Origin: Ignavibacteria bacterium
Lineage (GTDB): Bacteria; Bacteroidota; Ignavibacteria; Kapaibacteriales; Kapaibacteriaceae
DNA: 64,000 nucleotides
Assembly: GCA_947495975.1 (NCBI GenBank)
Contig: CANMBE010000002.1
Coordinates: 89,192-153,191, forward strand
Direction of reading: 5' to 3'
Positions 16,218 to 49,944 of this stretch are shown piece by piece (position 1 is the first letter of the stretch; every line of letters begins with the position of its first letter). The position numbers and the translations under genes were made by a program. Below the pieces are notes generated by a model. It searched no databases and was not told the origin of the DNA. It worked only from the letters and a program-made list of their open reading frames with translations.

Positions 16218-19200
16218 CTACTTACCCCCTGAGATAGAGAGGCGGATGTCTAGACCCACCTGGGTGGTACTGAAACCGGGATTTGCCGCTCCTTCGCTGA
16301 AATTCCCCTCATACCGAAAGAAGGCCGATGCCGTAACGCGATTGCTAATAGTGTAGCGGGCACGGGGCTCAATGATGATCTGAGTAGTGCCGGTAACAAG
16401 GGATCCATCTGGGCCCTTGTACTCGAGTATGTCATATTGCGCCCGGAGACTCTTGCGGACTTGAGCGTTAAATGTGAACTCTAGATCATTCTGAAGGTCC
16501 AAACCAAAGATCTTCAATGTTACACCACGCCGTAAATACGAAGCCTGAATCTGCATCTCATGGGAAGTCTCTCGCGAAATAGTTGATCGTGCCGAGGAAT
16601 TCAATCCATGCGTAGTTGTGACGCTATAGCGCGCCGTGGCGGTTAGGAGACCATTAAGCTTGCGTTCATCAAACGCTAAATTGAGTCCAATGAGCGGCGT
16701 GAATCCGGACTTCACTTGCTGAACTTCAACAAACCTACCATTGTCATTAATTCGAGCGTTTTCAGTGTACGTAGATTGATACGAATGCTCTAAGAATATT
16801 CGTTGTGCAATGCCTCGGAACGGTCCAATTTTTTCAATGCCATCCCAACGCAGCGTCCAATTTATCGCAGGCATAATTCGACTGATCTCACTTATAAAGG
16901 GCGATAGTGATTCAAATCCTTCACGGAAGGAAGTTGACAATGCCTCTAATAATCTGGCGCTACGAGTGGTAGTATCTGGATCGGCTTCAATCACCGCTTT
17001 GCGTTCATTGTACAAGGTGATCACTGATTCAACATTATCACCAAATAATCCAAAAGGCATATCAGGAAAGCTTATGAAGCTCCGCTCAACTGTCTGTCTC
17101 TTGATGACATTTGTAAACGTGGGAGTCCCTGCCGCATCAGTAATGACACGCTGATTTCTGCTATAACCAACATCCGTGCGCATGTTGAGATCAAGCGTTG
17201 CGCCTGGCCACAAAGGACGATTTGTCTGAAACTGGAAATTTGACTTCTGGTTGTAGTCATCCTGCATCACAGCATTTGCCGGACGTTTGCCCTCGGTTGT
17301 CTCAAATCGAAAGAATGGGAAGGCTGAACTAGTTGCAAGATTAATCCCGCCGTGTGGGTTAGAGATAAGTCCTAACTGATATGCCGTGCTTGGACCCCAG
17401 GTAGGATCATTATCGCGGAACGTTAATGAACGTGCCCAAAGGTTTGTAAATCCATTACCGCCCAAAACACCATTGTTTACTGCAGTATTTGTTTGGTTAA
17501 ATGTGAACGTAAAGTTTTCGAATCCAAAGAACAACTCTTGAAGAATTGAGCCAATATCATCGGCACCTTTCTTTGATGCACCAAAGATTTCTGAACCAAA
17601 CTGTCGCCAACGAAACACGGGACTCAATCGCATGTTTGAGAGATATCTACCCGTTCGGACAACATCACGTTGTGCAGGATCAGGTTGCAATGGGTCAACA
17701 ATACCATAAACAACATTGTATGATCCGGTTGTCTCAAGAAGTCGATTTAAGCCCCATATCTCCGGCAGTTTAGGGCGAATGGAGATTGTTACTGTCTGAT
17801 TATAGACGTTATCGCTACCAAAATTGAAAAGTGCACCTTTGGATAAGAACATTTCATCAACAATCTGCCCCCCGGTACGCTGCCTACCATTAGCATCTAG
17901 TTCAAAGGGGACAAGTGTTGAGAATGAGGTGACCTTATAATCCAGTACTGGACTTAAGAATCCATTTTCAACAATTCGCCAGTTGAATCCAAATGCCTTT
18001 TCAGCAATAAACTCACGAATGATCGGACTTGGTTGTGACAGATAGCGCGACTGTTCCGTTGTGCGCGCACGTGTCATCCCAATATTCGCTGTAATTGTCT
18101 GCGGCAGAAAGTTGATTTTCATATCCTTGTATGCCTTCAACGCAAACACATCGGCAAGGAACTTGAAGGGGCTAACGTCATACTTTGCTGGCAACGTTAC
18201 CGCATAATCGAGCCGGAATCTCCAGCGCCAATCAAATCGCTGTTGCACAACCTGAGATCTCTCAAACTCTTGTGCATATGAAAAGTTGAACGTCAACTTG
18301 TTAAAGGTATCATCTATGTACCACGCCTTTGATGGGATTCCCAGTCGCATACCTGTAAGCGCCCATTGATCCTGAACACGAACTCGTTGTGAACGCGTAT
18401 ACACGTTGTTTGATGCCTGCTCTGCCGCCTGTGCAGTACCTCCCGAGGCAAGCGTAACTCTAGCAGCCGCCGCCGCTGCAGCATCGAGTTCCACATCATT
18501 CTGGGCTTGATATTTTGGTGTTTCAGCGAGTTCTGTATGTGAATATGTCACAGGAATACGTGTCTCTTTCATATCCTTCGGGAGAAATTTTTCGAGTCCA
18601 AGCTGCAGCGTTGCATTCCATGATGTGGATTGCATGCGACTACCGAATCTGTCTTCTAATCGATGATAGTTTGGAGTAGTGTGATTAATCGACGCGGTAA
18701 AATCTCCTAGGTCTGCGAGCTTTAATGTGGAGCTAGCGATTCCAGCCCAATCATTGTCATTCATTGGGTCCACTACCCGCAACTCATCCACCCACATGGT
18801 TGTAGAGAGCTCGTTTGGATATCGTTCTGCAGGATTAGCAATACCAAAACCAAAGAACGAAACACGAGTCATAATTGGGTTACCCTTTATCACATAGGTC
18901 CCTTGTGGATCACCTGGAACGGGGAATTCTTGTCGCTCATTCGTTCTCGTTGGGTCTCTGAGTTCCTTGATGGCTGTAAGATCTGCAACTACGATACGTA
19001 GGTCTTGCCAGCCCCTTAGCAGTGGTCTGCGGTATTCATAATAGTTGGCCGAGTCTACGCCGTAGCGCACAAAACAATACGCTGGTGGTGTTGACCCTTG
19101 CGTGATGCTGCTCGGCATTGTGTTGTCTCCATGAACAAAGAATGCCAGTTCCTTGTAGTAGAATAGATCCCACGGTTGGAATATTCGCGCAGCAAATCTC

Positions 19201-22200
19201 TCTTCTCCATATCGGAGGTTTCTGGCCTTTACAACCAGTGACTGCTCATTCAAATATACCTGCTGGTACGGATCGGGGTTCTGCAATTGCTGCGGTGGTT
19301 GAACACCAGGGGGCATCACATAAAAGTCAGGTGCGCTCTGGTTTTCTTCACGGTTTACGTAGGCTACTTGCAGCACTGAATCATTCGATGATATGTTTGG
19401 CTGGAATTGGTGATTCCGCAGCCAATACGAGCCAACAACACCCCAATCAGCGATCGACACTTTTACAGCACCACCCTGAAAGTGAACACGTGCATATTGA
19501 ATATTTGTAAACAACGGATTGCCAACAATCGTGTCTGGTCTGCGTACAGGAATTCGGAACTGATACCAACCAGTCGCGGGATTACCACCCACGATCTGAG
19601 GATTCGTTGATGGATTTGGGTTGAGTTGTATTTCATAACGGAAATAGCTGTTATCAAGTGAGATGGTTTGCCCATTGTTCTTATTCAGAATTTCGGTATC
19701 AGGGAATTGCCCGTTTTCGGACTGCGTTGCGTTGCCTTCATAGTTGTTGTACTGAACAAACTGTGATTCATTTTGATTCTGGCGGTCAGCAGTGAAATTA
19801 AAATTGTAGTCGTCACGTGCCGGATCACTCTCTCGATTGAGTGGGTCTGCATAGATAACACGTTCGCGATCATTCAACAACGTGTCTATACCCACATCTT
19901 CACCAACATCAATCAAATTGTTAGGGGGCGTGCGGTCCTCAGTATTAAGACGCTGATTGGGTATCACATCTTCACTTATCTGACCAAGATCAATAAACAT
20001 GCGCGAGCCCGGCTCATACGCATCGATCTTCATCATTATTTCGATGTAGTCAATGTTGTCATTGTCAAAATTTGTGTTGAAAGCTGAGAGCAAGCGCATC
20101 ATACCACCCCAAATACGATCTCGATTTGGTGCAAGGTAAGCCTGGGTTTGAGCACGCACGGTCAATGAATCAGGATCGTTCCATCGCGGGTTCCTTGCAT
20201 CGAGGAACTCTGGGTTGGGATTGTAGATTCCACGCTCTTCGGGATTGAATACCAGACGAATCGGATTAATATTCGTGCGACCCTGCACGCGCGCGCGGTT
20301 AGGATAGACATCAGATTGAGCAACGTCAGGAACAAATTTCTGATACCAAAATGTCTTGCCCTTGAATTTTACTGCCGTGGTATCATGATCCCATTTTGAC
20401 TCTTCTTTTGCAGGTGATGCATGAGACCAGACGAGTGGAGTCAAACCAAAAGAGAGATACCGCCGTGCACTTTCAAAGTCATCAACGTAAGCAACTGCCC
20501 TTCCTGCGTCGCTGGCTACGGAAGAAACACGCTTGTTGGGGGTTGGTGAAACCATGGCCCATTCGCCCGTAAATGACAGCGTCGACTTTTCCTTCGTATC
20601 TAATCCAGGGAGAGCATCAAGGGCGCTCGTTAGCCAGGGCAGCTCTGCATTGAACTTTGCATCGAAGCCCATCATGAAATTTGAATTGGGTTCCTGACCA
20701 GGCACAACACGATCAATGATTGCCGCCTGATCATAGTTCATCAGCGTCATTCCAATCGAACCGTTCATTCGCCGCTTGTTGAAAAGGATCATGTCAGCAC
20801 GAAGTCCAAGAAGTGTCCTTGTCGTGAGATTAAAAATATCGTTCTGCTCATATTCAATGTTGAGGTTTGCATTTGGTAGCGTAGCTCGTGCATTGAGCAG
20901 AGACAATGTTCCAGAATAATAGTCTACCATAAAGTCCACACCTTCGCGCAAAGGTGCTCCGTCTAACGAAACTCTAACGCTACCTGGGGCCAATTGATAC
21001 GCTAGTTGAATTCGATTGCCAGATGCCGAACCAGCCGCCTCGCCAACAATTAAGAATCGGTTCTTTGCTGTCACAAGGCGGGCTGCTGCATCAGTCGTGT
21101 CATATACTTCATTGTATACGTATTGTTCAGCTAGTTGAGCGTTACCCTTCAAAGCGAAGTATTCCCGAAGGCCTTCTCTAAAAGGCTCTAGACTTGGGAA
21201 CGTAATTTCACCCCGAAGTGAATTAAAGACGGGAGGGCGCGCATCAAACACTCCATCTGGCGGCGCAGCGCCAGTACCGTTGTTTACTTGATCGATGCGA
21301 AAGATTGTCGGGATTTTGTCAGGAGCCCCCTCCAAAACATCTGTTGAGTCATTCGTGGATCGATAATACCACATGCCGATTTTTGCGTCTTGTGGATTAA
21401 CATTCGAGACTCCAATGTTATAGATGTTGCGCATCATCCGCTTCCACAACAACGGAAATCCTGGCTGCATTTGTGGTCGCGCAATGAGCTTTAAGATCAG
21501 CGTGTCTTTTTCGTTGACATTGCTCGTGGTAAGTGTACCATGGTAGAAATCGTCGGTTACATCGAGAGTAGGACCTTCTGTTCTATACGCTACTGCGTAA
21601 TATCGATCCGTACGAAGATTGAGGATTGTAACAGTTCCAAGGTTTACGTCTACTTCGTACCTCTTGTTATCAAGCCTTGTAAATCTACCTCGCTCCACTT
21701 CGCCGGCTTTGATTGCCTGATTCTTTAGAGCGTTAGGATATCGTTGTGCAAGCAAGTACTGAAGTGGGGCGAGATCGGCGATAGCTACGGCTTCATTGGC
21801 TTGAACTTCTTGCAGATCAACCGTTGATTCCCACACTTCAATTTCCTTCACAACAACAGGGGCTGCGGCTGGCGAAAACACAGGCGTCGTTGACCGGAAA
21901 TATGATTTCCAGACAGAAAAATATGCCGTGTCGAGAAAAAAGTGATTGCGGGCATAGTCATAGGCGCGCACATTGAACGTCTGACGCGAAGAGCCGCCAC
22001 GCGCATTAATAAATTTGCGCTCGCCTCTCTTTTGTGATGCAATGGTCTTGAGGTAGAGTGGGCCAAATTGAAAGTCCGCCCTTACTCCAAATAATGTCTG
22101 TCCCCCACCAATCAGAGTGCTTTGTGTTTCAAGATTGACATTGCCGAACTCTACTTTTTTGATGATGTCGTCGTCAAATCCGTCATATCCAACCTTGAAT

Positions 22201-40513: not shown

Positions 40514-41677
40514 GTGGTCATGAAATGGAATACGATCATTGGCCAAGACCGACTTCAACGGATGCTCCAGCGCTGCATCCTGGATAACCGTATTCCACAA
40601 GCGCTATTGCTCAATGGATTTGAAGGTTCAGGAACGGTGGCCCTCGCCCTGGCCTTTGCCAGAACAGTTAACTGTGAGCAACCCATAACAACAGCCGAAA
40701 CAATCGTGCCATGCGAACAATGCCATGCCTGTAAACAGTCAATCTCGCTGCAACACCCAAACATTCGCCTGATTACAGCCTTACCGGCAAAGAAAAAGGG
40801 CGAGACGCAGGATGTGCCAAAGGATGACGTGATCATGGAATTGCAAGGGGCTATCCATTCGCTCGCTCTTGATCCGTATACATCTCTTCGATTAGCGAAC
40901 GCAACCTCGATTCGTATTGCCCAGATTCGAGAATTGAAGCGGACATTGTCGCTGTCCGCGGCACAGAGTGGGCGTAGGGTTGTTATCATTCTTCATGCCG
41001 AAGAAATGAATGTGGAGGCTGCCAATTCGTTTTTGAAAACGCTGGAAGAACCGAACAATGATGTTACGATCATCCTCACAACGGAACGGCCAGAATCTCT
41101 GTTGCAAACAATTGTTTCGCGATGTCAGGAGTTAATTGTTCCTCCTCTTGATGATAGTGACATTGTGCAGGCACTTGTTGACCGTGGACTCTGCGACAGA
41201 GACGAAGCGCTCATCATTGCTCCGTTTGCACAAGGCAGTCTTCACAAAGCAGTTGACTACTTGTCAGACGATATGCGAGCTCTGCGAGAAACGGCTGTGG
41301 ATCTTCTTCGCACCGCGCTCAAAGGCAAAGATTATCGAAACGCCCTGACTGATGCCGTGCAAGAAGCATCAGAGAGTAGAAGCAAGTCACAAGCCGATGC
41401 AATTCTTTCTCTCCTGGCATTGTGGCTGAGAGATGCCTATGTTATTGCACGTGCAGGCGATGGAGCACCAATTGTGAATATCGATCATCGTGCCGCTCTG
41501 GAACGTTTTGCTGCCGCCTTTGGTGGTGCTGATTTTCCTGCCGTGCTGCAAACAATCGAACACGCTCACAGAGACCTTGCACGCAACGTGTCGATCTCTC
41601 TTGTTCTGCTCACTACCATGCTAGAGATTAGACGAGTGTTTGCTGCGACACGACTCAAGGACAAAGCTACCGAGTAA
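40514..41677 (+). CDS. holB: DNA polymerase III subunit delta'
   Basis: IIGQDRLQRMLQRCILDNRIPQALLLNGFEGSGTVALALAFARTVNCEQ plus a Zn-type CxxC. Confidence 0.7.
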   Translation: MVMKWNTIIGQDRLQRMLQRCILDNRIPQALLLNGFEGSGTVALALAFARTVNCEQPITTAETIVPCEQCHACKQSISLQHPNIRLITALPAKKKGETQDVPKDDVIMELQGAIHSLALDPYTSLRLANATSIRIAQIRELKRTLSLSAAQSGRRVVIILHAEEMNVEAANSFLKTLEEPNNDVTIILTTERPESLLQTIVSRCQELIVPPLDDSDIVQALVDRGLCDRDEALIIAPFAQGSLHKAVDYLSDDMRALRETAVDLLRTALKGKDYRNALTDAVQEASESRSKSQADAILSLLALWLRDAYVIARAGDGAPIVNIDHRAALERFAAAFGGADFPAVLQTIEHAHRDLARNVSISLVLLTTMLEIRRVFAATRLKDKATE

Positions 41678-41849
41678 AAACAGGCTTAGCCTTGTTTGGC
41701 ATTTTCGTTTGCTCAACATTCCAGGTCTATGGGCAAACTGACAATCTGCACATCCACACTGCCGTAACTGATTGGCGCGGGTGGCTCTCGGTTCAGATTG
41801 TACAGGTTGATGCTTCGAGCATATCACTGCTCGATATTTTGACGATATA

Positions 41850-43775
41850 CTAGCTTTTGAAGTCGGGCTCAGCGCTACGGGAATCTCTGCTAGTGGGGCA
41901 ACGGTCGGTAGGTCTGTGAAGTGTTGGGATTACCAATACATCGGCTCCACCAATATCAATTGTTACGTCATCCCGTTGAAGCGATACACCAGGCAAGACA
42001 GATGTGTATTGAAGGCTTGGAACTCGTGAAAGGGGCAATCGAACCGTACGCGAAACGCTAGAGATGTTTACAACAACAAGGATGCCGCACCTCGATCCAG
42101 GTAAACGTCTAAGAAACGCCACTACCTCTATATCATCAACGTCGAGACTTTCAATCGAATCGATGTCGCTCAATTGCCGAAGCACATTGAACGCAGCATA
42201 TTTCTTAACCTTCTCTTGAATCCACAGAGCTGTATCGATTCCCTCCTGCCATGGCAAGGGAGAATCGCTGAACAGTGCTAGCTTTTCCGGAGGATAGGCA
42301 TCCATCATTTCTTGAGTGAATCCGAGTCCGGTATTCACTGGTTTATCGTCATTAAGTTCAAGACCAGCGTGAAGTATGGAAAGTCCATGAGGGAGAAATC
42401 TCAGAAACAACAATAGCGCAATTCCTGCGCGGGGAGACATACGTGATGCTGCACGTTGCGTATTGTGAGACTCAGGAGCTGCGAAAAAACGTATGGGAAT
42501 ATCACCACGCGAAACACGCTCCACAAATGACGTCAGCTTCTTCGCATCATGAGCATCAAACGGAAGATATCCTACAACAGCATCATACCCCGCAGTACGT
42601 GATGAAGCCTCTAGTAGAAAATTCTCTTCAAGCAAGATGAAGTTAGGCTTTACGGTGCGACTCTCAGTGATTATCCGAGAACGAAGTTCCGATGGAAGCG
42701 CATGCCCCATGTCTATCATTGCTCCGTCAATACCGAACATCCGAATGTAGTGTGGTATGATTCCTGCAATAGTATTCCACAGCGAGGTTTGTCTGTAGGA
42801 AGGTTGGTCTAGCTCTCGCTCAAACATCCGAATGGTGTTATACGCCATATATCGGAATGAGGGATGGTCATGCATTCGCAAATACGTAACGTCTGACCAA
42901 GCCGGCTGCGGGTCATCTGGCGGCCAATCAGCGAATGCACCGGGAATGCGCAATACTTTGCCGCGTGCTCCTATGCCCTTCCAACCACGTTCATCTTTCT
43001 CTACACGCAGAGGCATGTGATCAAAGAGCTGTTGATACTTTTCTGCTGGTGCTGGTAGATCAACGTATACGGAACTCTCAATCATCGAATGCATCTCTGC
43101 AAGTGCATCTGGAGTGAAGACTGGTGAGCGGAATGAATCCATGGAACCAATCTGCTTTTCATCAACCCAATAGAACCATTCTGGGTGACCGTGCACGAGA
43201 TCACTGTCAATGCTTGCAGTGCGCAGAACAACTTCGAGAATGACCTTCATACCAAGGAGGTGACACGTTTCAACGAGCACACGTGCTTGATCATCAACAG
43301 ACATGTCAATGTTTGACTCAGCAAGATGTGGGTCAAGTCGAAACGGGTGTTTTGCAGCATACGGAGAACCAAGTGTTCCCTTTCTTCCAACGTCACCAAT
43401 CTCCGTTATTGGCAACAACACAAGTGTGTCAACACCGATGCCTTTCAAATAAGGCAGGAGCCCCATAAGCTTAAGAAAGGTGCCCGTTGATTTCCATCCA
43501 TCATTAACGGTGCCTTCACCGTGGTTAAAGGACGTTACATGTCGCACCATTCCGTTGTACGCTACAGCGCGCTCCAACGTCCACGTCCGCTGGTGGTCTC
43601 TACTTCTCCTGATGGTATCAATACGGCGAAGTTGATGCAACAAGTAAGAGGCACCCGAGTGAAATGTCACATCGGTATGCGCCCCTACCCAAGCGCCAGG
43701 CACGCTATAGGAATGCCACGTAGCATGTTCTTGTTCTTCCAAGAGTCCAATCAGTTTTCGCAGGAGAGGCGTCAA
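41850..43775 (-). CDS. glycoside hydrolase family 13 (alpha-amylase superfamily) protein, cytoplasmic
   Basis: GTFLKLMGLLPYLKGIGVDTLVLLPITE matches the GH13 region-I neighbourhood. No signal peptide. Confidence 0.65.
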   Translation of the reverse strand: MTPLLRKLIGLLEEQEHATWHSYSVPGAWVGAHTDVTFHSGASYLLHQLRRIDTIRRSRDHQRTWTLERAVAYNGMVRHVTSFNHGEGTVNDGWKSTGTFLKLMGLLPYLKGIGVDTLVLLPITEIGDVGRKGTLGSPYAAKHPFRLDPHLAESNIDMSVDDQARVLVETCHLLGMKVILEVVLRTASIDSDLVHGHPEWFYWVDEKQIGSMDSFRSPVFTPDALAEMHSMIESSVYVDLPAPAEKYQQLFDHMPLRVEKDERGWKGIGARGKVLRIPGAFADWPPDDPQPAWSDVTYLRMHDHPSFRYMAYNTIRMFERELDQPSYRQTSLWNTIAGIIPHYIRMFGIDGAMIDMGHALPSELRSRIITESRTVKPNFILLEENFLLEASSRTAGYDAVVGYLPFDAHDAKKLTSFVERVSRGDIPIRFFAAPESHNTQRAASRMSPRAGIALLLFLRFLPHGLSILHAGLELNDDKPVNTGLGFTQEMMDAYPPEKLALFSDSPLPWQEGIDTALWIQEKVKKYAAFNVLRQLSDIDSIESLDVDDIEVVAFLRRLPGSRCGILVVVNISSVSRTVRLPLSRVPSLQYTSVLPGVSLQRDDVTIDIGGADVLVIPTLHRPTDRCPTSRDSRSAEPDFKS

Positions 43776-45631
43776 GGGGCCACCTCCCGCGCGAGGTAGT
43801 GATCATGAATCTTTTTCGCAATCGCTTTACCAACAACATTTTCTAATACTGATAGCGGAGATGACCGAACTTGCTCAACCGATCCAATCACTGACAAGAG
43901 TTTCCTGGCTGTTGTTTCTCCAACGCCCGCGATATCCGTAAGCTCTGTGCGGAAGGTGCGTTTATCACGAAGTGTGCGATGATATCGAACAGCAAATCTA
44001 TGCGCTTCGTCTCGCGCTTGTTGTAATAGTCTGAGACTGCTAGAGACCTTTGGCAGGTAGAGTGGCGTTGTGCTTCCTGGAATGAACACTTCCTCGAGGC
44101 GCTTTGCGAGTCCGATGACCGTAAATGAACTCACAAGATTCAATTGTGAAAAGACTTCCATAGCGTGCGAAAGTTGACCCTTTCCACCGTCGATGATAAC
44201 CAGATCTGGAAGTTCTGTTCCTTCGTCAATAGCACGACCATATCTGCGCGTGATCACTTCCTTCATCGCCTCAAAGTCATCATTGCCTTCAACGGAGCGA
44301 ATCTTATAGTTCCTGTATTCGGATTTTTTTGGTTTCCCATCAACAAAAACAATCATCGACGAAACGTAGTCAGTTCCCTGGATGTGGGAATTATCGAAAC
44401 ATTCGATGCGTCTCGGCAGACGATCCATCCGTAGGTCTTGCTGCAAGGACATAACGGCACGAGGAACTGCCTGATCCTTGGTGGCTTGTTGCGTGAGCAA
44501 CTCACGAAGCAGCACATCAGCATTCATTTCAGCCATGGCAAGCAATTTGCGTTTGTCCCCAATCTTTGGAACAATGATCTCGACGGTCCTTCCACGTTTT
44601 TCTTTGATGAATTCTGCCAGCGTCTCTACGTCATCATATTCACATGGGATAAGCACTTCATCTGGGAAATGTTCTGCCTCAATGTACCAACGCTCTACTG
44701 CTGTTCGCACAATCTCTTGGTCATCTTGTTCACGCGAATTACTGATAAAGTAATGTCGCTTCCCTACGAGCTTGCCATCACGAATGATAAAGACCACCAT
44801 ACACGCCATGCTTTCAGCACGTGCAAGCGCAAAAACATCACGGTCAGCTTCGTCATTCGCCAATACTTTCTGTTTCTCGGTGTATTCTCTGAGGCGAAGG
44901 AGTCGCCCCCGAACAATTGCGGCATCTTCAAAGCGTAGTTCTTCGGCTAGAGACATCATACGTTCTTCGAGTTGACGCTCAAGGTCTCGTGTTCGCCCAT
45001 TGAGTACTTGTTGTGCCTGGCGAATGTACTCGTTGTATCGCTCCTGCGTTATGTGTGCCTGGCATGGACCTTCACACTTTTTTATGTGGTAGTCTAAGCA
45101 CACTTTCCAGCGTCCGGCAGCAATCGATGCTTCTGTGAGAGCTAGATCGCACGAACGCAGAGGAAAGATTGACCGCAATGACTTCATCAACGAGTAGAGG
45201 TACGTGCCATCTGTGTAGGGGCCAAAATACTTGCTACCGTCGCGCACTACACGCCGTGTCTTAAAGACCCGTGGATACTCTTCCTTCGTGATGCGGATGT
45301 ACGGATAAGACTTATCGTCCTTCAGGAGGATGTTGTACTTCGGACGGTGTTCCTTGATAAGAGTGTTCTCAAGGATCAGTGCTTCAACCTCTGTGTCAGT
45401 GACGATGACCTCGATGTCGGCAATCTTCCGTACCAAAGCCTTTGTCTTTGCGTCAACAGGGCGACCCATTTGGAAATAGGATCGGACGCGATTGCGAAGA
45501 CTCTTTGCTTTTCCAACGTAAATGATTTGCCCATCCACATCCTTATGCAGATAGACCCCCGGCTTGGTAGGCAGGCCGGATATCTTCTTCAACAAGGCGT
45601 CTGAAAGAAGGGTTAGGTCGGTTTCCATCAC
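43772..45631 (-). CDS. uvrC: excinuclease ABC subunit C
   Basis: GIY-YIG (GVYLHKDVDGQIIYVGKAKSLRNRVRSY), UvrBC and RNaseH-like/HhH domains. Confidence 0.95.
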   Translation of the reverse strand: MMETDLTLLSDALLKKISGLPTKPGVYLHKDVDGQIIYVGKAKSLRNRVRSYFQMGRPVDAKTKALVRKIADIEVIVTDTEVEALILENTLIKEHRPKYNILLKDDKSYPYIRITKEEYPRVFKTRRVVRDGSKYFGPYTDGTYLYSLMKSLRSIFPLRSCDLALTEASIAAGRWKVCLDYHIKKCEGPCQAHITQERYNEYIRQAQQVLNGRTRDLERQLEERMMSLAEELRFEDAAIVRGRLLRLREYTEKQKVLANDEADRDVFALARAESMACMVVFIIRDGKLVGKRHYFISNSREQDDQEIVRTAVERWYIEAEHFPDEVLIPCEYDDVETLAEFIKEKRGRTVEIIVPKIGDKRKLLAMAEMNADVLLRELLTQQATKDQAVPRAVMSLQQDLRMDRLPRRIECFDNSHIQGTDYVSSMIVFVDGKPKKSEYRNYKIRSVEGNDDFEAMKEVITRRYGRAIDEGTELPDLVIIDGGKGQLSHAMEVFSQLNLVSSFTVIGLAKRLEEVFIPGSTTPLYLPKVSSSLRLLQQARDEAHRFAVRYHRTLRDKRTFRTELTDIAGVGETTARKLLSVIGSVEQVRSSPLSVLENVVGKAIAKKIHDHYLAREVAP

Positions 45632-45707
45632 CGCAAAGGTACCGCAATTCGTGCGACCTCATTGCACGGCGCGTATATTGTGCAAGGTTCACAATGGGAG
45701 GTTCTTC

Positions 45708-47024
45708 GTGCAGCAGGAAACGGACGTCATACACTCCATTGAGGAGATAGCCAAGCAGCTTAAGGATGCTGCGTGGTTCATTGGTCAGCGAGTGATCAAC
45801 AGAGAAGAGGTTATTGAGCAAGCGTTTTGCGCGCTCCTCACTGCAGAGCACATTCTACTTCAAAGCAGAACAGGCGCAGGAAAATCGCTTTTGGCCGAGC
45901 AGATATTCAGCATGTTCGAGGGCTCGCGTCTGTTTCGAGTGCAGGCAAGTAAAGAGCAACAACCCGATACGTTCTTTGGCGGACTCGATCTTGAAGAACT
46001 CAAGGCTGGACGCATCATACACAATACCAAGGGCTCACTTGTTGAGAGTGACTTTGGTTTCATTGATGAAATTTTTGACGCCAATGATTTTACGCTTCGA
46101 GCTTTGCTATCACTCCTTAATGAACGCCGCCTCTTGCGTGGTCTACAAGATGTTGCCTCCCCACTTCACTCTGTGATCGCAGCCACCAACTACCTGCGTG
46201 TGAGCGAAGTAACAGAAGCACTTCTCGACAGATTCCTTTTCAAAGCCGTTATCCTACCAGATAAAGACCCCTTTATCCAGTATCAGATATCACAGCGATA
46301 TCTCATCTACGGAGGGAAGACAGCTGAACCCGTGAAGCGTATTCCGCTGCTTCGACTGCAGCACATGCATAAGATCATTACCGGTAGAAGTGCTGACTTT
46401 CAGATTTCGATTACCAATGAATTGTTGTACTTCACCAACATCGTGATCAGACACTTTGAGTTCTTGCGCAACAGACAGCTGAGTGAACATGCTAAACGAG
46501 GTGATGGAGTAGACTTCTACATTTCACCGCGTACCCAGGCAAAGTCTCTCGATCTGTTGCGTGCATTGGCTCTGTTGAAGGGGCGCACCAATGTTGTGCA
46601 TGACGATGTGAGTCAGCTCTACTTCATCTTTGCCACTGTTGGCCTTCCGGAGGAGGTGGCGTTGTTCAAGAAGGCATACACAACGGTGTTGAATTCACTT
46701 ACTGCCTCTCGTGGATTTGACCAAGTGACAATCTTGTTGGACTTCACAGAGCTGCTACGGGAGATCAAGGAGAATCCGAAGCTCATGTTGGAGCCCCTTT
46801 CCAAGTTTGCAGACTCACCAGTGCGTCGCTCATTCCTAGACTGGGTGAAGGAGAAGTTTAGCAGCGAACAACCGAGGGATCAGAATCGCAAGGTACTTGA
46901 GGCATTCTTGTTGGATTTTGTGCCCGTGTGCGACGAAGTGCGTGAACTGAAGAATTCTGTTGAAAAATCGCTGCAGCAGACGATGATAATTGCTGAGCGT
47001 GAGCTCCAACGACTCAAAGCATAG
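45708..47024 (+). CDS. RavA/MoxR-like AAA+ ATPase
   Basis: Walker A SRTGAGKS, Walker B FGFIDEIFDANDFTLRALLSLLNERR (close to the RavA FLDEI...LLTAINER pattern), sensor IAATN and ALLDRF. A probable GTG start has GGGAGG 6 nt upstream. Confidence 0.6.
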   Translation: MQQETDVIHSIEEIAKQLKDAAWFIGQRVINREEVIEQAFCALLTAEHILLQSRTGAGKSLLAEQIFSMFEGSRLFRVQASKEQQPDTFFGGLDLEELKAGRIIHNTKGSLVESDFGFIDEIFDANDFTLRALLSLLNERRLLRGLQDVASPLHSVIAATNYLRVSEVTEALLDRFLFKAVILPDKDPFIQYQISQRYLIYGGKTAEPVKRIPLLRLQHMHKIITGRSADFQISITNELLYFTNIVIRHFEFLRNRQLSEHAKRGDGVDFYISPRTQAKSLDLLRALALLKGRTNVVHDDVSQLYFIFATVGLPEEVALFKKAYTTVLNSLTASRGFDQVTILLDFTELLREIKENPKLMLEPLSKFADSPVRRSFLDWVKEKFSSEQPRDQNRKVLEAFLLDFVPVCDEVRELKNSVEKSLQQTMIIAERELQRLKA

Positions 47025-47027
47025 GGT

Positions 47028-48584
47028 ATGTCGCGCTCGTCCATCGAACTTTCATCATTCTTCTCCAGCATGGAGCAGTATGGGTTCTTTGACACCGTTG
47101 AGAAACATTTGCCTGAGGAGTTTACGATCATCTATGAGATTGCGCGAATCCTTGAGGATAAAACGCATTCAATTTCGCGAGCAATGGCTCCTATTCTAGA
47201 ATTGAATGATCCGTCAACAGCCGAGAATGCGCTTGATCAGATATTGATTCCAAACATTCCCGAGGCAAAAGAATTTGAAGCAGATCTTATTCGCAGTGTG
47301 ACGGACGTGCGCTATATCTATCCTGCGCAGCATCTGTTGCCCGAGATTGTCTTCTTACGTCGGTTAGCCGAGCGGTCTTTGTGGATGCCACGTGCACGCT
47401 CACCACGAAACTACCGTTATCAAACAGAAAGCGATCGCTTTGCACCTGACGATCGAAAGCAAAAGGTGTACATCCTTTTTGATACATCAAGCTCGATGCG
47501 TCAGAACTATCGCATTCATTTGGCAAAGGCAATTGTTTATTTGTTCTTGCAGCAAAACCAGCGCGAGCTTGGCACAATTTTCTTCAGAACGTTTGATCTT
47601 ACTGTTGGGCCACTACGGACAGCGCGAGACGTGCCTTCGTACGATAGTCTTATCAGCGATGTGATGCACATCAACGCCATTGGAAACGGCACCGTGCTAC
47701 AGAAAGCACTGCAAACAGCTGTAGATGACATTGCTCATGAAAGTCAACTAAGTCATGCACAGATCCTTGTAGTAACCGATGGTGTAGCGCATATTGATCT
47801 CGACAGACTTCGCGAGCAAATGGGAGACCAGATTACAGTGAACACCGTAAAGATCGGTCATGCACGGATGCATATTGATGCAAAAGTGATCGAGGACCAG
47901 GTCTTTCAGTCATCGAGTGATGAAACCGTGCGGTTACGGGAATTAGTGAAGCAAAAGCGCGACTTAGAGCTCCAGATATCTACTGCCGCTGGACATTTAC
48001 GTCAAGAAGCACTACGTTCTCAACTCGGTGTGATTCTACGTCAGATTGAGTCGCTCACTGAGCGGCTTGGGAGTTTTGTCTCTGAGCACTATGGGCTTGA
48101 GATTCAAAAGCTAAGCACCGTCTACGTAAACGTGGATGACATTTCGCCTGAAGAGATGTTCTCTTTGCCCGAAGAGAAAGTTTCTGAACTAGAAGACCTC
48201 GCCGAGTCACTTCTCAAAGCACTCCGCGAAGAACGTCAAGTAGAAGACATCAAGAGAGCCGCCGTGCTCTACGATCATTTGATGTTGCTCATGAAGTATA
48301 ACAAGGTGGATGCATCACGCTTTGACAAGGCGGCAAAAGAACTAGAGCAAATGCTTGATGCAATCCTTAACAAACCCACATCGGGCGTAGACGACATGTC
48401 GATCAGCGACCTCGAGCGAATTCAACTAAGAAACATGCTCGATTCAGGCAGCTTTAGCAACTCCTTCTCACTGGCACGTATCCTTCGTCTGCTCTGGGTA
48501 AAGGGTACACGCTGGTGGCTCGGACGCAAGCAGTTCAAAACGTTTAGAGCGATAACAGGGAAGAAGATTCAGAGGAGAACGTAG
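47028..48584 (+). CDS. ViaA-like von Willebrand factor A protein with a coiled-coil C-terminus
   Basis: MIDAS DTSSSM ... NGT ... VVTDG. The start lies 4 nt after the ATPase stop. Confidence 0.6.
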   Translation: MSRSSIELSSFFSSMEQYGFFDTVEKHLPEEFTIIYEIARILEDKTHSISRAMAPILELNDPSTAENALDQILIPNIPEAKEFEADLIRSVTDVRYIYPAQHLLPEIVFLRRLAERSLWMPRARSPRNYRYQTESDRFAPDDRKQKVYILFDTSSSMRQNYRIHLAKAIVYLFLQQNQRELGTIFFRTFDLTVGPLRTARDVPSYDSLISDVMHINAIGNGTVLQKALQTAVDDIAHESQLSHAQILVVTDGVAHIDLDRLREQMGDQITVNTVKIGHARMHIDAKVIEDQVFQSSSDETVRLRELVKQKRDLELQISTAAGHLRQEALRSQLGVILRQIESLTERLGSFVSEHYGLEIQKLSTVYVNVDDISPEEMFSLPEEKVSELEDLAESLLKALREERQVEDIKRAAVLYDHLMLLMKYNKVDASRFDKAAKELEQMLDAILNKPTSGVDDMSISDLERIQLRNMLDSGSFSNSFSLARILRLLWVKGTRWWLGRKQFKTFRAITGKKIQRRT

Positions 48585-48597
48585 GGCCTCCCCCTAC

Positions 48598-49944
48598 TCA
48601 AACATCCTTAGGCACTACACTCGCTCTTCCAACAGAGTGATATTCAAAGCCATCTGCTGCCATGTCTTCGAGATCATACATGTTGCGACCATCAAAGATT
48701 AAGGGGCGCATGAGCAGGCTCTTCATACGCAGTACGTCGGGTTTGCGGAATTCATTCCACTCGGTGGCAATAACCAATGCGTCCGCTCCATCAATAGCGT
48801 CGTACGGTGATGTTGCATACGTTACACGCTCGCCAAGGACGCGGCGTGCAGATTCGCGGGCTTCAGGGTCATAAGCGTGCACAACGGCGCCGGCTGAGAG
48901 CAATGCTTCGATAATGACAAAGGCTGGCGCCTCGCGGACGTCATCAGTGTTAGGCTTAAACGATAAGCCCCATACCCCTATGATTCGTCCACTGAGGTTG
49001 CCGTCGAACCGACGGAATATCCGATCGATAAATCGCAGGACCTGGCGGTCGTTAACGTGTTTTGATGCTTGAACAATTTCTAGTGGAGCGCCTGCCTCAT
49101 TTGCTGCATGGATGATGGCCTTTACGTCCTTGGGGAAACAGCTACCGCCATATCCGATTCCGGAAAAGAGAAATCGCTTCCCTATCCTACCGTCGGTCCC
49201 AATACCTAGTCTGATTTTTTCAATATCAGCGCCAACTGTTTCGCAATATTCTGAAAGATCGTTCATGAAGGAAATCTTGGTAGCGAGATATGCATTAGCA
49301 GCGTACTTCGTTACCTCAGCACTCTTTTCGTCGAAGATTAAGATAGGCGCGCCGCCACGTACGAATGGTTCGTAGAGCTCCTTGAGAATTTCTGCTGCGT
49401 AGAGGCTTGATGTACCAACCACAACGCGGTCAGGCTTCATAAAGTCGTCAACGGCAAAACCCTCGCGAAGGAATTCTGGGTTGCTCACTACGTCAACCCG
49501 TCGCTCAGGCGCAACGGATGCAAACACCGCAGCTACCCGGCTGGTTGTACCAACTGGAACGGTGCTCTTATTGATAACAATGCGAGGCTGTGTGATATTG
49601 TGTTCATTCAAAAGCTCGCCTACGCGGTGGGCTGTTGCCATCACCTGCTCTAGGTCTGCTTGTCCGTCTTTGCCCGGAGGTGTAGGCAGACAGAACATGA
49701 GTATCTCGCATGTGCGTATGGCCTGCGACAGGTCAAGCGAAAACGTAATACGCTTTTCGCGAATGTTACGCTGGAGCACTACCTCCAGGCCAGGCTCATA
49801 GATCGGGATGTCTCCCTTGCTGAGGCGCGAGACTTTTTCTGGGTCTACGTCGATACAGAGAACTGTATTGCCGACATCGGCTAGGCATGTTCCGGTGACT
49901 AGACCAACGTACCCCGTACCGATAACGGCTATGCGATAAGACAT
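48598..49944 (-). CDS. ugd: UDP-glucose 6-dehydrogenase
   Basis: IAVIGTGYVGLVTGTCLA Rossmann fold and a catalytic Cys region (GYGGSCFPKD). Confidence 0.9.
   Translation of the reverse strand: MSYRIAVIGTGYVGLVTGTCLADVGNTVLCIDVDPEKVSRLSKGDIPIYEPGLEVVLQRNIREKRITFSLDLSQAIRTCEILMFCLPTPPGKDGQADLEQVMATAHRVGELLNEHNITQPRIVINKSTVPVGTTSRVAAVFASVAPERRVDVVSNPEFLREGFAVDDFMKPDRVVVGTSSLYAAEILKELYEPFVRGGAPILIFDEKSAEVTKYAANAYLATKISFMNDLSEYCETVGADIEKIRLGIGTDGRIGKRFLFSGIGYGGSCFPKDVKAIIHAANEAGAPLEIVQASKHVNDRQVLRFIDRIFRRFDGNLSGRIIGVWGLSFKPNTDDVREAPAFVIIEALLSAGAVVHAYDPEARESARRVLGERVTYATSPYDAIDGADALVIATEWNEFRKPDVLRMKSLLMRPLIFDGRNMYDLEDMAADGFEYHSVGRASVVPKDV

Follow-up and report, generated by a model that had tools for sequence, protein, structure and literature searches.

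Couples of a MoxR-type ATPase and a protein with a von Willebrand factor A (vWA) domain are widespread, and a handful of them have a known client (RavA-ViaA, NorQD, CbbQO, CoxDE and Mg-chelatase). Given one such couple between uvrC and ugd on a 64,000-nucleotide stretch of an Ignavibacteria bacterium (GenBank assembly GCA_947495975.1, contig CANMBE010000002.1, positions 89,192 to 153,191; hereafter the window), we questioned whether the two genes form a chaperone module, whether they are RavA and ViaA themselves, as the names used in a first-pass annotation of the sequence implied, or whether they belong to a conflict system, which that annotation had also raised. We put at roughly 0.7 the probability that they constitute a two-gene operon of a lineage-specific RavA-clade MoxR ATPase, of the AAA+ (ATPases associated with diverse cellular activities) superfamily, and its cognate vWA adaptor, vertically inherited in the core genome of Kapabacteria-like Bacteroidota. 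[quoted passage not shown] The subfamily is uncharacterised and of the known MoxR-vWA chaperone kind.

Gene boundaries, ATPase class and partner architecture

The list of open reading frames (ORFs) for the window places two same-strand (+) frames between uvrC and ugd, the ATPase first and the vWA gene (47028..48584, +, ATG start, 518 aa) after it, separated by exactly 3 nt from stop to start (TAG-GGT-ATG); the adjacency, gap and flanks first described are all as reported. The longest ATPase frame begins with TTG and encodes 486 aa (45564..47024, +), and an internal GTG at 45708 yields a protein of 438 aa (45708..47024). The GTG is the true start, because the ATPase is called at 438 aa from this codon on all four public contigs that carry an identical vWA gene (ENA, Logan and NCBI GCA_947505685.1), because the alignment of homologues (430-460 aa) begins at the GTG-derived N-terminus, and because a conserved TATATTG box (45674..45680, +) falls inside the extension of the longer frame. 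Read from the sequence, a Shine-Dalgarno GGGAGG (45696..45701, +) precedes the GTG by 6 nt, in agreement with the GGGAGG-N6-GTG start already proposed. The extension had been said to overlap uvrC over its first ~140 nt: it is indeed 144 nt long, but just ~65-68 nt (45564-45628/31) overlap that gene, which the same four contigs call at 618 aa (window 43772-45628). The TATATTG box, present in most of 12 aligned upstream regions of relatives, stands ~28 nt before the ATPase start in the 76-nt divergent uvrC/ATPase intergenic region, and this conservation suggests that it is likely a promoter element (-10/-7) of the two-gene operon. A generic sigma-70 scan did not call the box, and no sigma-54 promoter was seen upstream of the ATPase in the 76-nt intergenic region, which was read by eye only, without a pattern search.

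The ATPase (45708..47024, +) is a MoxR-class AAA+ protein of the RavA clade according to Pfam, searches of the PDB, and profile and structure comparisons. Its best Pfam match is PF20030 'bpMoxR' (108.6 bits), followed by AAA_5 (61 bits), both above their cutoffs, and AAA_lid_8 is matched as well; AAA_3, the MRP signature, reaches 21.8 bits, under its cutoff of 27. A sigma-54 activator or McrB-type ATPase had been named as what would overturn the original assignment: Sigma54_activat stays at 18.9 bits, under its cutoff of 20.2, and McrB is not among the matches. Since E. coli RavA, used as a control (L087:5598-7094), scores 191 bits on PF20030, this family is a general marker of the RavA clade within MoxR. 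The sole matches of a phmmer search of the PDB were RavA (E 1.8e-16) and MoxR CHU_0153. BLASTP aligned the ATPase with RavA at 33% identity over a 150-aa core, with Walker A, Walker B, the 'LLxxxNER' helix, sensor 1 and the arginine finger in register, and a 31-sequence ATPase profile matched RavA in hhalign with a probability of 99.2% (E 3.3e-19) over the AAA+/lid region only (query 27-307). E. coli YehL/YehP were considered as the closest relative and rejected, the hhalign match to YehL (E 1.8e-4) being far weaker than that to RavA. Foldseek with the AlphaFold model of the ATPase (predicted local distance difference test, pLDDT, 74) ranked RavA first (4upb/3nbx, E ~1e-11), then 2r44 (MoxR) and then MCM proteins, structural neighbours that constitute the helix-2-insert clade.

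Walker A, helix-2 insert, Walker B, sensor 1 (N161), arginine finger (R175) and sensor 2 (R275) are all invariant in 31 homologues, which bears out the RavA/MoxR-type Walker B and helix-2-insert signature first noted. The Walker A motif or P-loop (aa 53-60, SRTGAGKS; 45864..45887, +; S53, R54, T55, G56, G58 and K59 invariant) aligns with GPPGIAKS of RavA, and Walker B (aa 116-121, FGFIDE; 46053..46070, +; F116, F118, I119, D120 and E121 invariant) with its VFLDE. Between them, as in RavA, lies the helix-2 insert region (aa 78-99, VQASKEQQPDTFFGGLDLEELK; 45939..46004, +), modelled at low confidence, in which almost all residues are invariant (the insert block being V78QASKEQQPDTFFG91). A family-specific C-terminal helical domain (aa 314-437; 46647..47018, +), predicted as helices with pLDDT mostly >85, stands in place of the triple-helix/LARA module of RavA; residues 314-437 have no Pfam match and were left unaligned to RavA by hhalign.

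The partner (47028..48584, +) is, by sequence, a MIDAS vWA protein, probably of the MoxR-associated CoxE/ViaA/NorD type, with an architecture of its own, an assignment made because 19 of 29 members of its family match VWA_CoxE (PF05762) at E <= 1e-3 (best E 2.6e-8) and because of the pre-vWA 'FLRRLAER' motif. On the window protein PF05762 gives 23.0 bits, below its cutoff of 26.4, and Pfam finds generic vWA models alone, over residues 146-281. The MIDAS had been called perfect, and it is intact and under purifying selection: all 29 partner homologues compared (40-100% identity) keep D152-x-S154-x-S156, T222 and D251. These residues lie in the vWA domain (aa 145-369; 47460..48134, +; D152-S154-S156 at nt 47481-47495), which is preceded by a conserved N-terminal domain (aa 1-140; 47028..47447, +) with many invariant columns (L28 P29 F32 R40 ... 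R116 L118 W119 P121). The N-terminal domain includes the pre-vWA motif FLRRLAERSLWMP, which aligns with EFYRRLVEKQLL of ViaA ('FLRRLAER' against 'FYRRLVEK') in a weak hhalign profile match. This domain has no Pfam or PDB match, a PDB sequence search with the partner returned no match, and the domain is partly ordered in the AlphaFold model of the partner (pLDDT 73.9); it is also recognisable in remote outgroup partners.

The vWA domain had been thought to be followed by ~190 aa of coiled coil. This is only partly right: the region C-terminal to it is all-helical in the AlphaFold model, but what the model resolves (no coiled-coil predictor was used) is a hairpin, a strand, a bundle and a basic helix. 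The helical hairpin (aa 298-354; 47919..48089, +; helices 298-319 and 323-354, pLDDT 83-91) is followed by a strand (365-369) that appears to complete the vWA sheet, which would make the hairpin an insertion within that domain, and we consider the hairpin a candidate pore-inserting 'finger' by likeness to NorD (PMC9976466). The C-terminal helical bundle (aa 382-472; 48171..48443, +; predicted helices 382-401, 405-424, 430-448 and 461-472) has no structural match. It leads into a basic tail (aa 481-518; 48468..48581, +; net charge +12; rich in L, W, R and K; predicted helix 482-510), whose basic character is kept among homologues while the sequence varies. No transmembrane segment was found in the partner.

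Conservation of the pair across genomes

We assessed how far the two genes are found together. The ATPase has 369 homologue clusters and the partner 168; the best 120 of each are near full length bar a few fragments, and the named sources are almost always metagenome-assembled genomes of Candidatus Kapabacteria, Ignavibacteria, Chlorobiota or Bacteroidota; Kapaibacterium is classed in Bacteroidota, within the Fibrobacterota-Chlorobiota-Bacteroidota (FCB) group, as the FCB-type genome recognised at first pass would have it. When one genome per species was scanned, ATPase relatives were found in 214 species, and 80 of these loci were fetched. The pair is adjacent in 55 of the 80. In every close locus (42/42, ATPase identity >=72%) the vWA gene directly follows the ATPase, in an order largely as in the window: response regulator, holB, (amylase-like), uvrC, ATPase, vWA, ugd, TonB_C-like, SPOR, a 531-aa protein and TPR. 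Adjacency is kept in 13 distant loci (56-67% ATPase identity), with differing flanks; in the other 25 the gene after the ATPase is rpoN, a UbiA-family gene, a histidine kinase, DJ-1/PfpI or one on the opposite strand. Co-conservation, put forward as a check on the initial assignment, is therefore complete among close relatives but lapses at the level of adjacency in 25 of the 38 distant loci; neither of the outcomes named as overturning that assignment was observed. A metagenome scan centred on the vWA gene gave 42 adjacent pairs among 69 informative loci, three pairs with one wedged gene and 24 vWA genes without an ATPase within 6 kb, 11 more loci being too short.

At greater distance, a profile search of 1.84 billion representatives recovered the whole Kapabacteria ATPase family as one 50% cluster (765 bits), and ~15 further clusters with full-length coverage at 200-360 bits. 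Two outgroup ATPases (<=50% identity, one of them labelled Microgenomates) were located, and each is followed by a same-strand gene without Pfam matches, at a 1-nt gap or a 13-nt overlap; hhalign identifies these genes as remote partner homologues that include the N-terminal domain and the MIDAS (98.2% and 99.6%). When a word-indexed database was searched with a profile for remoter homologues of the partner, only this family came back. Judged by these homologies, the two-gene module is older than Kapabacteria, and some lineages later split the two genes. Because adjacency survives to ~25% partner identity, functional coupling of the two proteins is strongly supported.

Two of the split-gene genomes were checked, and in both the vWA homologue lies ~37 kb off on the same contig, beside flagellin-fliS-fliD, with the motifs of both genes intact. 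In the split lineage a flagellin gene stands right after the solo vWA gene (L085 8001-13545; L171 6001-11534; L136:7616-8560; L138:7585-8592), and flagellin is also a recurrent neighbour of one gene or of both in certain distant lineages. In L085 and L171, fliS, fliD and flaG come next after flagellin, and a giant Ig-repeat protein of >5000 aa precedes the vWA gene. The flagellin neighbourhood probably reflects one or few synteny events and not independent evidence.

Proposed mechanism and competing readings

As a class, MoxR proteins generally pair with vWA proteins (PMC7159879 section 8), and the working scheme summarised there has been worked out for NorQD (PMC9976466). By analogy with RavA-ViaA, NorQ-NorD and CbbQ-CbbO, the ATPase would assemble into a hexameric ring, on which one or few copies of the partner may dock, with the pre-vWA motif, the N-terminal domain and hairpin 298-354 as candidate docking elements. 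The hairpin could then reach the pore and the helix-2 inserts, and a Mg2+-loaded MIDAS would capture an acidic residue of the client protein. ATP hydrolysis, passed through the adaptor, might remodel that client, with insertion of a cofactor or metal, assembly of a complex or release as the outcome, and the basic terminal helix could anchor the adaptor at an anionic surface, for instance the inner membrane. Several points weigh against the operon of a MoxR ATPase with a cognate adaptor, or against parts of this scheme. Nothing in the window suggests a client; the candidate 'finger' is helical, whereas that of NorD is beta-stabilised; model confidence is low in the AAA+ core (residues 81-168); and a role for the basic tail at the membrane is purely inferential. 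The ATPase is also without a following vWA gene in the 25 distant loci described above, and an obligate partnership is thus not proven. The subfamily, present in 214 species genomes from a Bacteroidota lineage that has been little studied, has a distinctive adaptor architecture and ATPase C-terminus, which makes it a clean candidate for the discovery of a new client.

We looked for a third gene; an effector-like companion elsewhere had been suggested as a check on the pair. No third gene of the system was found in the window or in close syntenic relatives, where the insertions beside the pair are unrelated (subtilase, methyltransferase, nitroreductase), but lineage-specific neighbours do occur in distant relatives. 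One divergent clade has a calcineurin-like metallophosphoesterase gene inserted between ATPase and vWA genes (L145:4767-5912, L146, L165:4122-5297), and such a gene lies shortly upstream of the vWA gene in L154 (4643-5941), L158 and L168, with a tandem duplicate in L168. A DinB_2 gene is found immediately 5' of the vWA gene in L088:7429-7965, L090, L113-L115, L117 and L143; in L088 it stands between ATPase and vWA, and elsewhere no upstream ATPase was detected, three of those contigs being too short to judge. A gene for a universal stress protein (Usp) adjoins the vWA gene, on its downstream side in one clade and on its upstream side in a second (L066:12955-13407; L135:5378-5971; L138:5540-5977; L088 13377-13826), and sigma-54 activators or rpoN recur near the pair (L048:2057-3727, L066:8574-9812, L154:3165-4544). 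A tblastn search of the window gave no match for metallophosphoesterase, DinB_2, Usp, flagellin, sigma-54 activators or rpoN. We treat these lineage-specific neighbours as leads only, not as parts of the module.

A wider alternative, which we regard as speculative and rather unlikely, is that the pair forms the unchanging centre of an old modular system, spread over Kapabacteria and remote outgroups (some labelled Patescibacteria), which takes on, in different lineages, a variable gene next to the vWA gene. The variable genes would then mark either the clients of a dedicated chaperone for metallo-enzyme maturation or a stress switch, tethered to an anionic surface by the basic tail, or the effectors of a minimal two-component threshold system. 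Under that alternative the recruited gene would be either a calcineurin-like dinuclear-metal phosphoesterase, a metal-dependent hydrolase/transferase of the DinB_2 family, or Usp.

Improbable, in our assessment, is that the pair is (a remnant of) a MoxR-vWA ternary system (Kaur, Burroughs, Iyer and Aravind 2020), a nucleoside triphosphate-dependent type of conflict or defence system; on that view the chaperone pair would set the effector threshold. Its appeal comes from the best Pfam family, which carries the ternary-system name, and from neighbours in relatives. The calcineurin-like phosphoesterase found between ATPase and vWA, or just upstream of vWA, in distant relatives is a named effector type of GTPase-centric systems, which are said to overlap VMAP and iSTAND ternary systems (PMC7159879). 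Sixteen relatives, moreover, carry a 1287-aa gene (N-terminal vWA, WD40 beta-propeller, Ig-like) with holB on one side and the 641-aa amylase-like gene on the other, at a distance of two genes upstream of the ATPase (L005:2341-6204, +; homologues in L006, L007, L021, L026, L030-L032, L034, L035, L037, L039-L041, L045 and L089). The 64-kb window lacks this gene throughout, with just 172 bp separating holB from the amylase-like gene (~41677-41850), a presence/absence polymorphism, and in the relatives that have it two opposite-strand housekeeping genes intervene between it and the pair, such that no operon is shared. The family name 'MoxR domain in the MoxR-vWA-beta-propeller ternary systems' is not evidence of a conflict system either: a model that captures E. 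coli RavA at 191 bits carries no system-level information, and the name over-interprets an ordinary RavA-clade MoxR.

The features that define the beta-propeller ternary system (PMC7159879 section 22) are a vWA protein in which a C-terminal beta-propeller is strictly present, a third component (TPR/propeller) whose N-terminus varies and, often, a GXXXTAKS P-loop. Here the partner has no propeller (no propeller Pfam match, and an all-helical model past the vWA domain), no third TPR/beta-propeller gene is present, the neighbours being uvrC and ugd, and the P-loop is SRTGAGKS, invariant in the family, and not GXXXTAKS, which is a frequent and non-obligatory feature. Inheritance is vertical, in fixed housekeeping synteny, and there is no hypervariable region. 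Against PADLOC-DB 2.0 the ATPase matched only mad8 (16.9 bits, E 9e-4) and RtcR (14.6 bits), neither significant, and the partner had no match. Each defining feature of Kaur et al. 2020 was checked and none is present, so we reject the conflict-system reading; feature tests, PADLOC and synteny alike leave the variant once considered without support at this locus.

We likewise give little credence to the two genes being functionally independent and neighbours by chance, as their separation in 25 of the 38 distant species loci, where each then stands among unrelated genes, might suggest. Gaps of 1-3 nt or overlaps are kept from 100% down to <=50% ATPase identity and ~25% partner identity among unrelated flanks, the pairing is general for the class (PMC7159879 section 8), and the two split genomes checked retain both genes with intact motifs.

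It is very improbable that the pair comprises true RavA and ViaA orthologues, acting as in E. coli on lysine decarboxylase and on either fumarate reductase or NADH dehydrogenase. Among relatives of the ATPase that are characterised and solved, RavA is the closest, and the order of ATPase then vWA gene is that of ravA-viaA. However, the NCBIfam RavA equivalog NF010054 scores 66.2 bits against a cutoff of 681, with a match that spans residues 22-301 only. LARA (PF20265) and RavA_C (PF12592), both present in E. coli RavA (135.5 and 82.7 bits), are absent from the ATPase, whose C-terminal 130 aa are unaligned to RavA, the hhalign match ending at RavA residue 279. Pairwise similarity of the partner to ViaA is not significant (BLASTP E 1.2), the hhalign probability is 16%, and the vWA domain of the partner is central (145-369 of 518), whereas that of ViaA is C-terminal (320-457 of 483). 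By these sequence measures orthology to RavA-ViaA is largely refuted, and the names 'RavA-like' and 'ViaA-like' hold at the level of class (RavA-clade MoxR; probable CoxE/ViaA/NorD-type vWA) but not for the orthology that they imply.

Least credible of all is a MoxR operon of the Bat (Bacteroidetes aerotolerance) type (MRP-subfamily MoxR, DUF58, membrane vWA BatA/BatB and TPR proteins), which the FCB genome and a vWA fold search listing BatB (3ibs) and the Bacteroides fragilis aerotolerance protein (4jdu) among many generic vWA matches might recall, given that AAA_3 stays below its cutoff, that no DUF58 gene or second vWA gene accompanies the pair (no DUF58/BatA-D homologues within 10 kb in the window, nor in any of the 42 close syntenic loci), that the partner lacks a transmembrane segment, unlike the membrane-anchored Bat vWA proteins, and that the BatB matches span the common vWA fold only.

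Locus setting and comparison with known systems

The genes on either side of the pair are context and not components. The divergent uvrC (43772..45631, -), outside the module, carries GIY-YIG and UvrC Pfam domains in public calls and is syntenic in most close relatives, and the convergent ugd (UDP-glucose 6-dehydrogenase; 48598..49944, -) carries UDPG_MGDP_dh domains and is syntenic in close relatives. GC content is flat across the window, and the remaining window genes are housekeeping (hrcA-grpE-dnaJ, rsmD, coaD, rimO, Lon, holB, uvrC). Next to uvrC lies a 641-aa ORF (41850-43775, -) with sub-threshold alpha-amylase/debranching-enzyme matches (19 bits), yet conserved and syntenic in relatives; it is 566 aa in public gene calls, which makes the TTG start of the long ORF doubtful. 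The largest ORF of the window encodes 2271 aa (16218-23033, -). Otherwise the locus is ordinary chromosomal housekeeping.

Compared with RavA-ViaA, the ATPase belongs to the same MoxR clade (33% identity over the core, helix-2 insert, AAA_lid_8), the genes nearly abut in both cases, and the partners share the MIDAS and an 'RRL-E' pre-vWA motif. Unlike RavA, the ATPase has no triple-helix/LARA module or RavA_C, has its own 125-aa helical C-terminus, and reads SRTGAGKS in the P-loop where RavA reads GPPGIAKS. The partner differs from ViaA in its unrelated N-terminal domain, helical hairpin insert and basic C-terminal tail, and no link to frd, nuo or ldcI accompanies the pair here. NorQ and CbbQ belong to another MoxR subfamily, without a C-terminal extension. 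Their partners NorD and CbbO have a C-terminal vWA domain and are encoded beside client genes (nor, cbb), whereas here no client gene is adjacent and the putative protrusion is alpha-helical. With the MoxR-vWA-beta-propeller systems the pair shares the Pfam model for its AAA+ protein, a vWA gene after the ATPase and an occurrence in Bacteroidota; it differs in having no propeller, no third component and no GXXXTAKS, and in being vertically inherited where those systems are mobile or variable.

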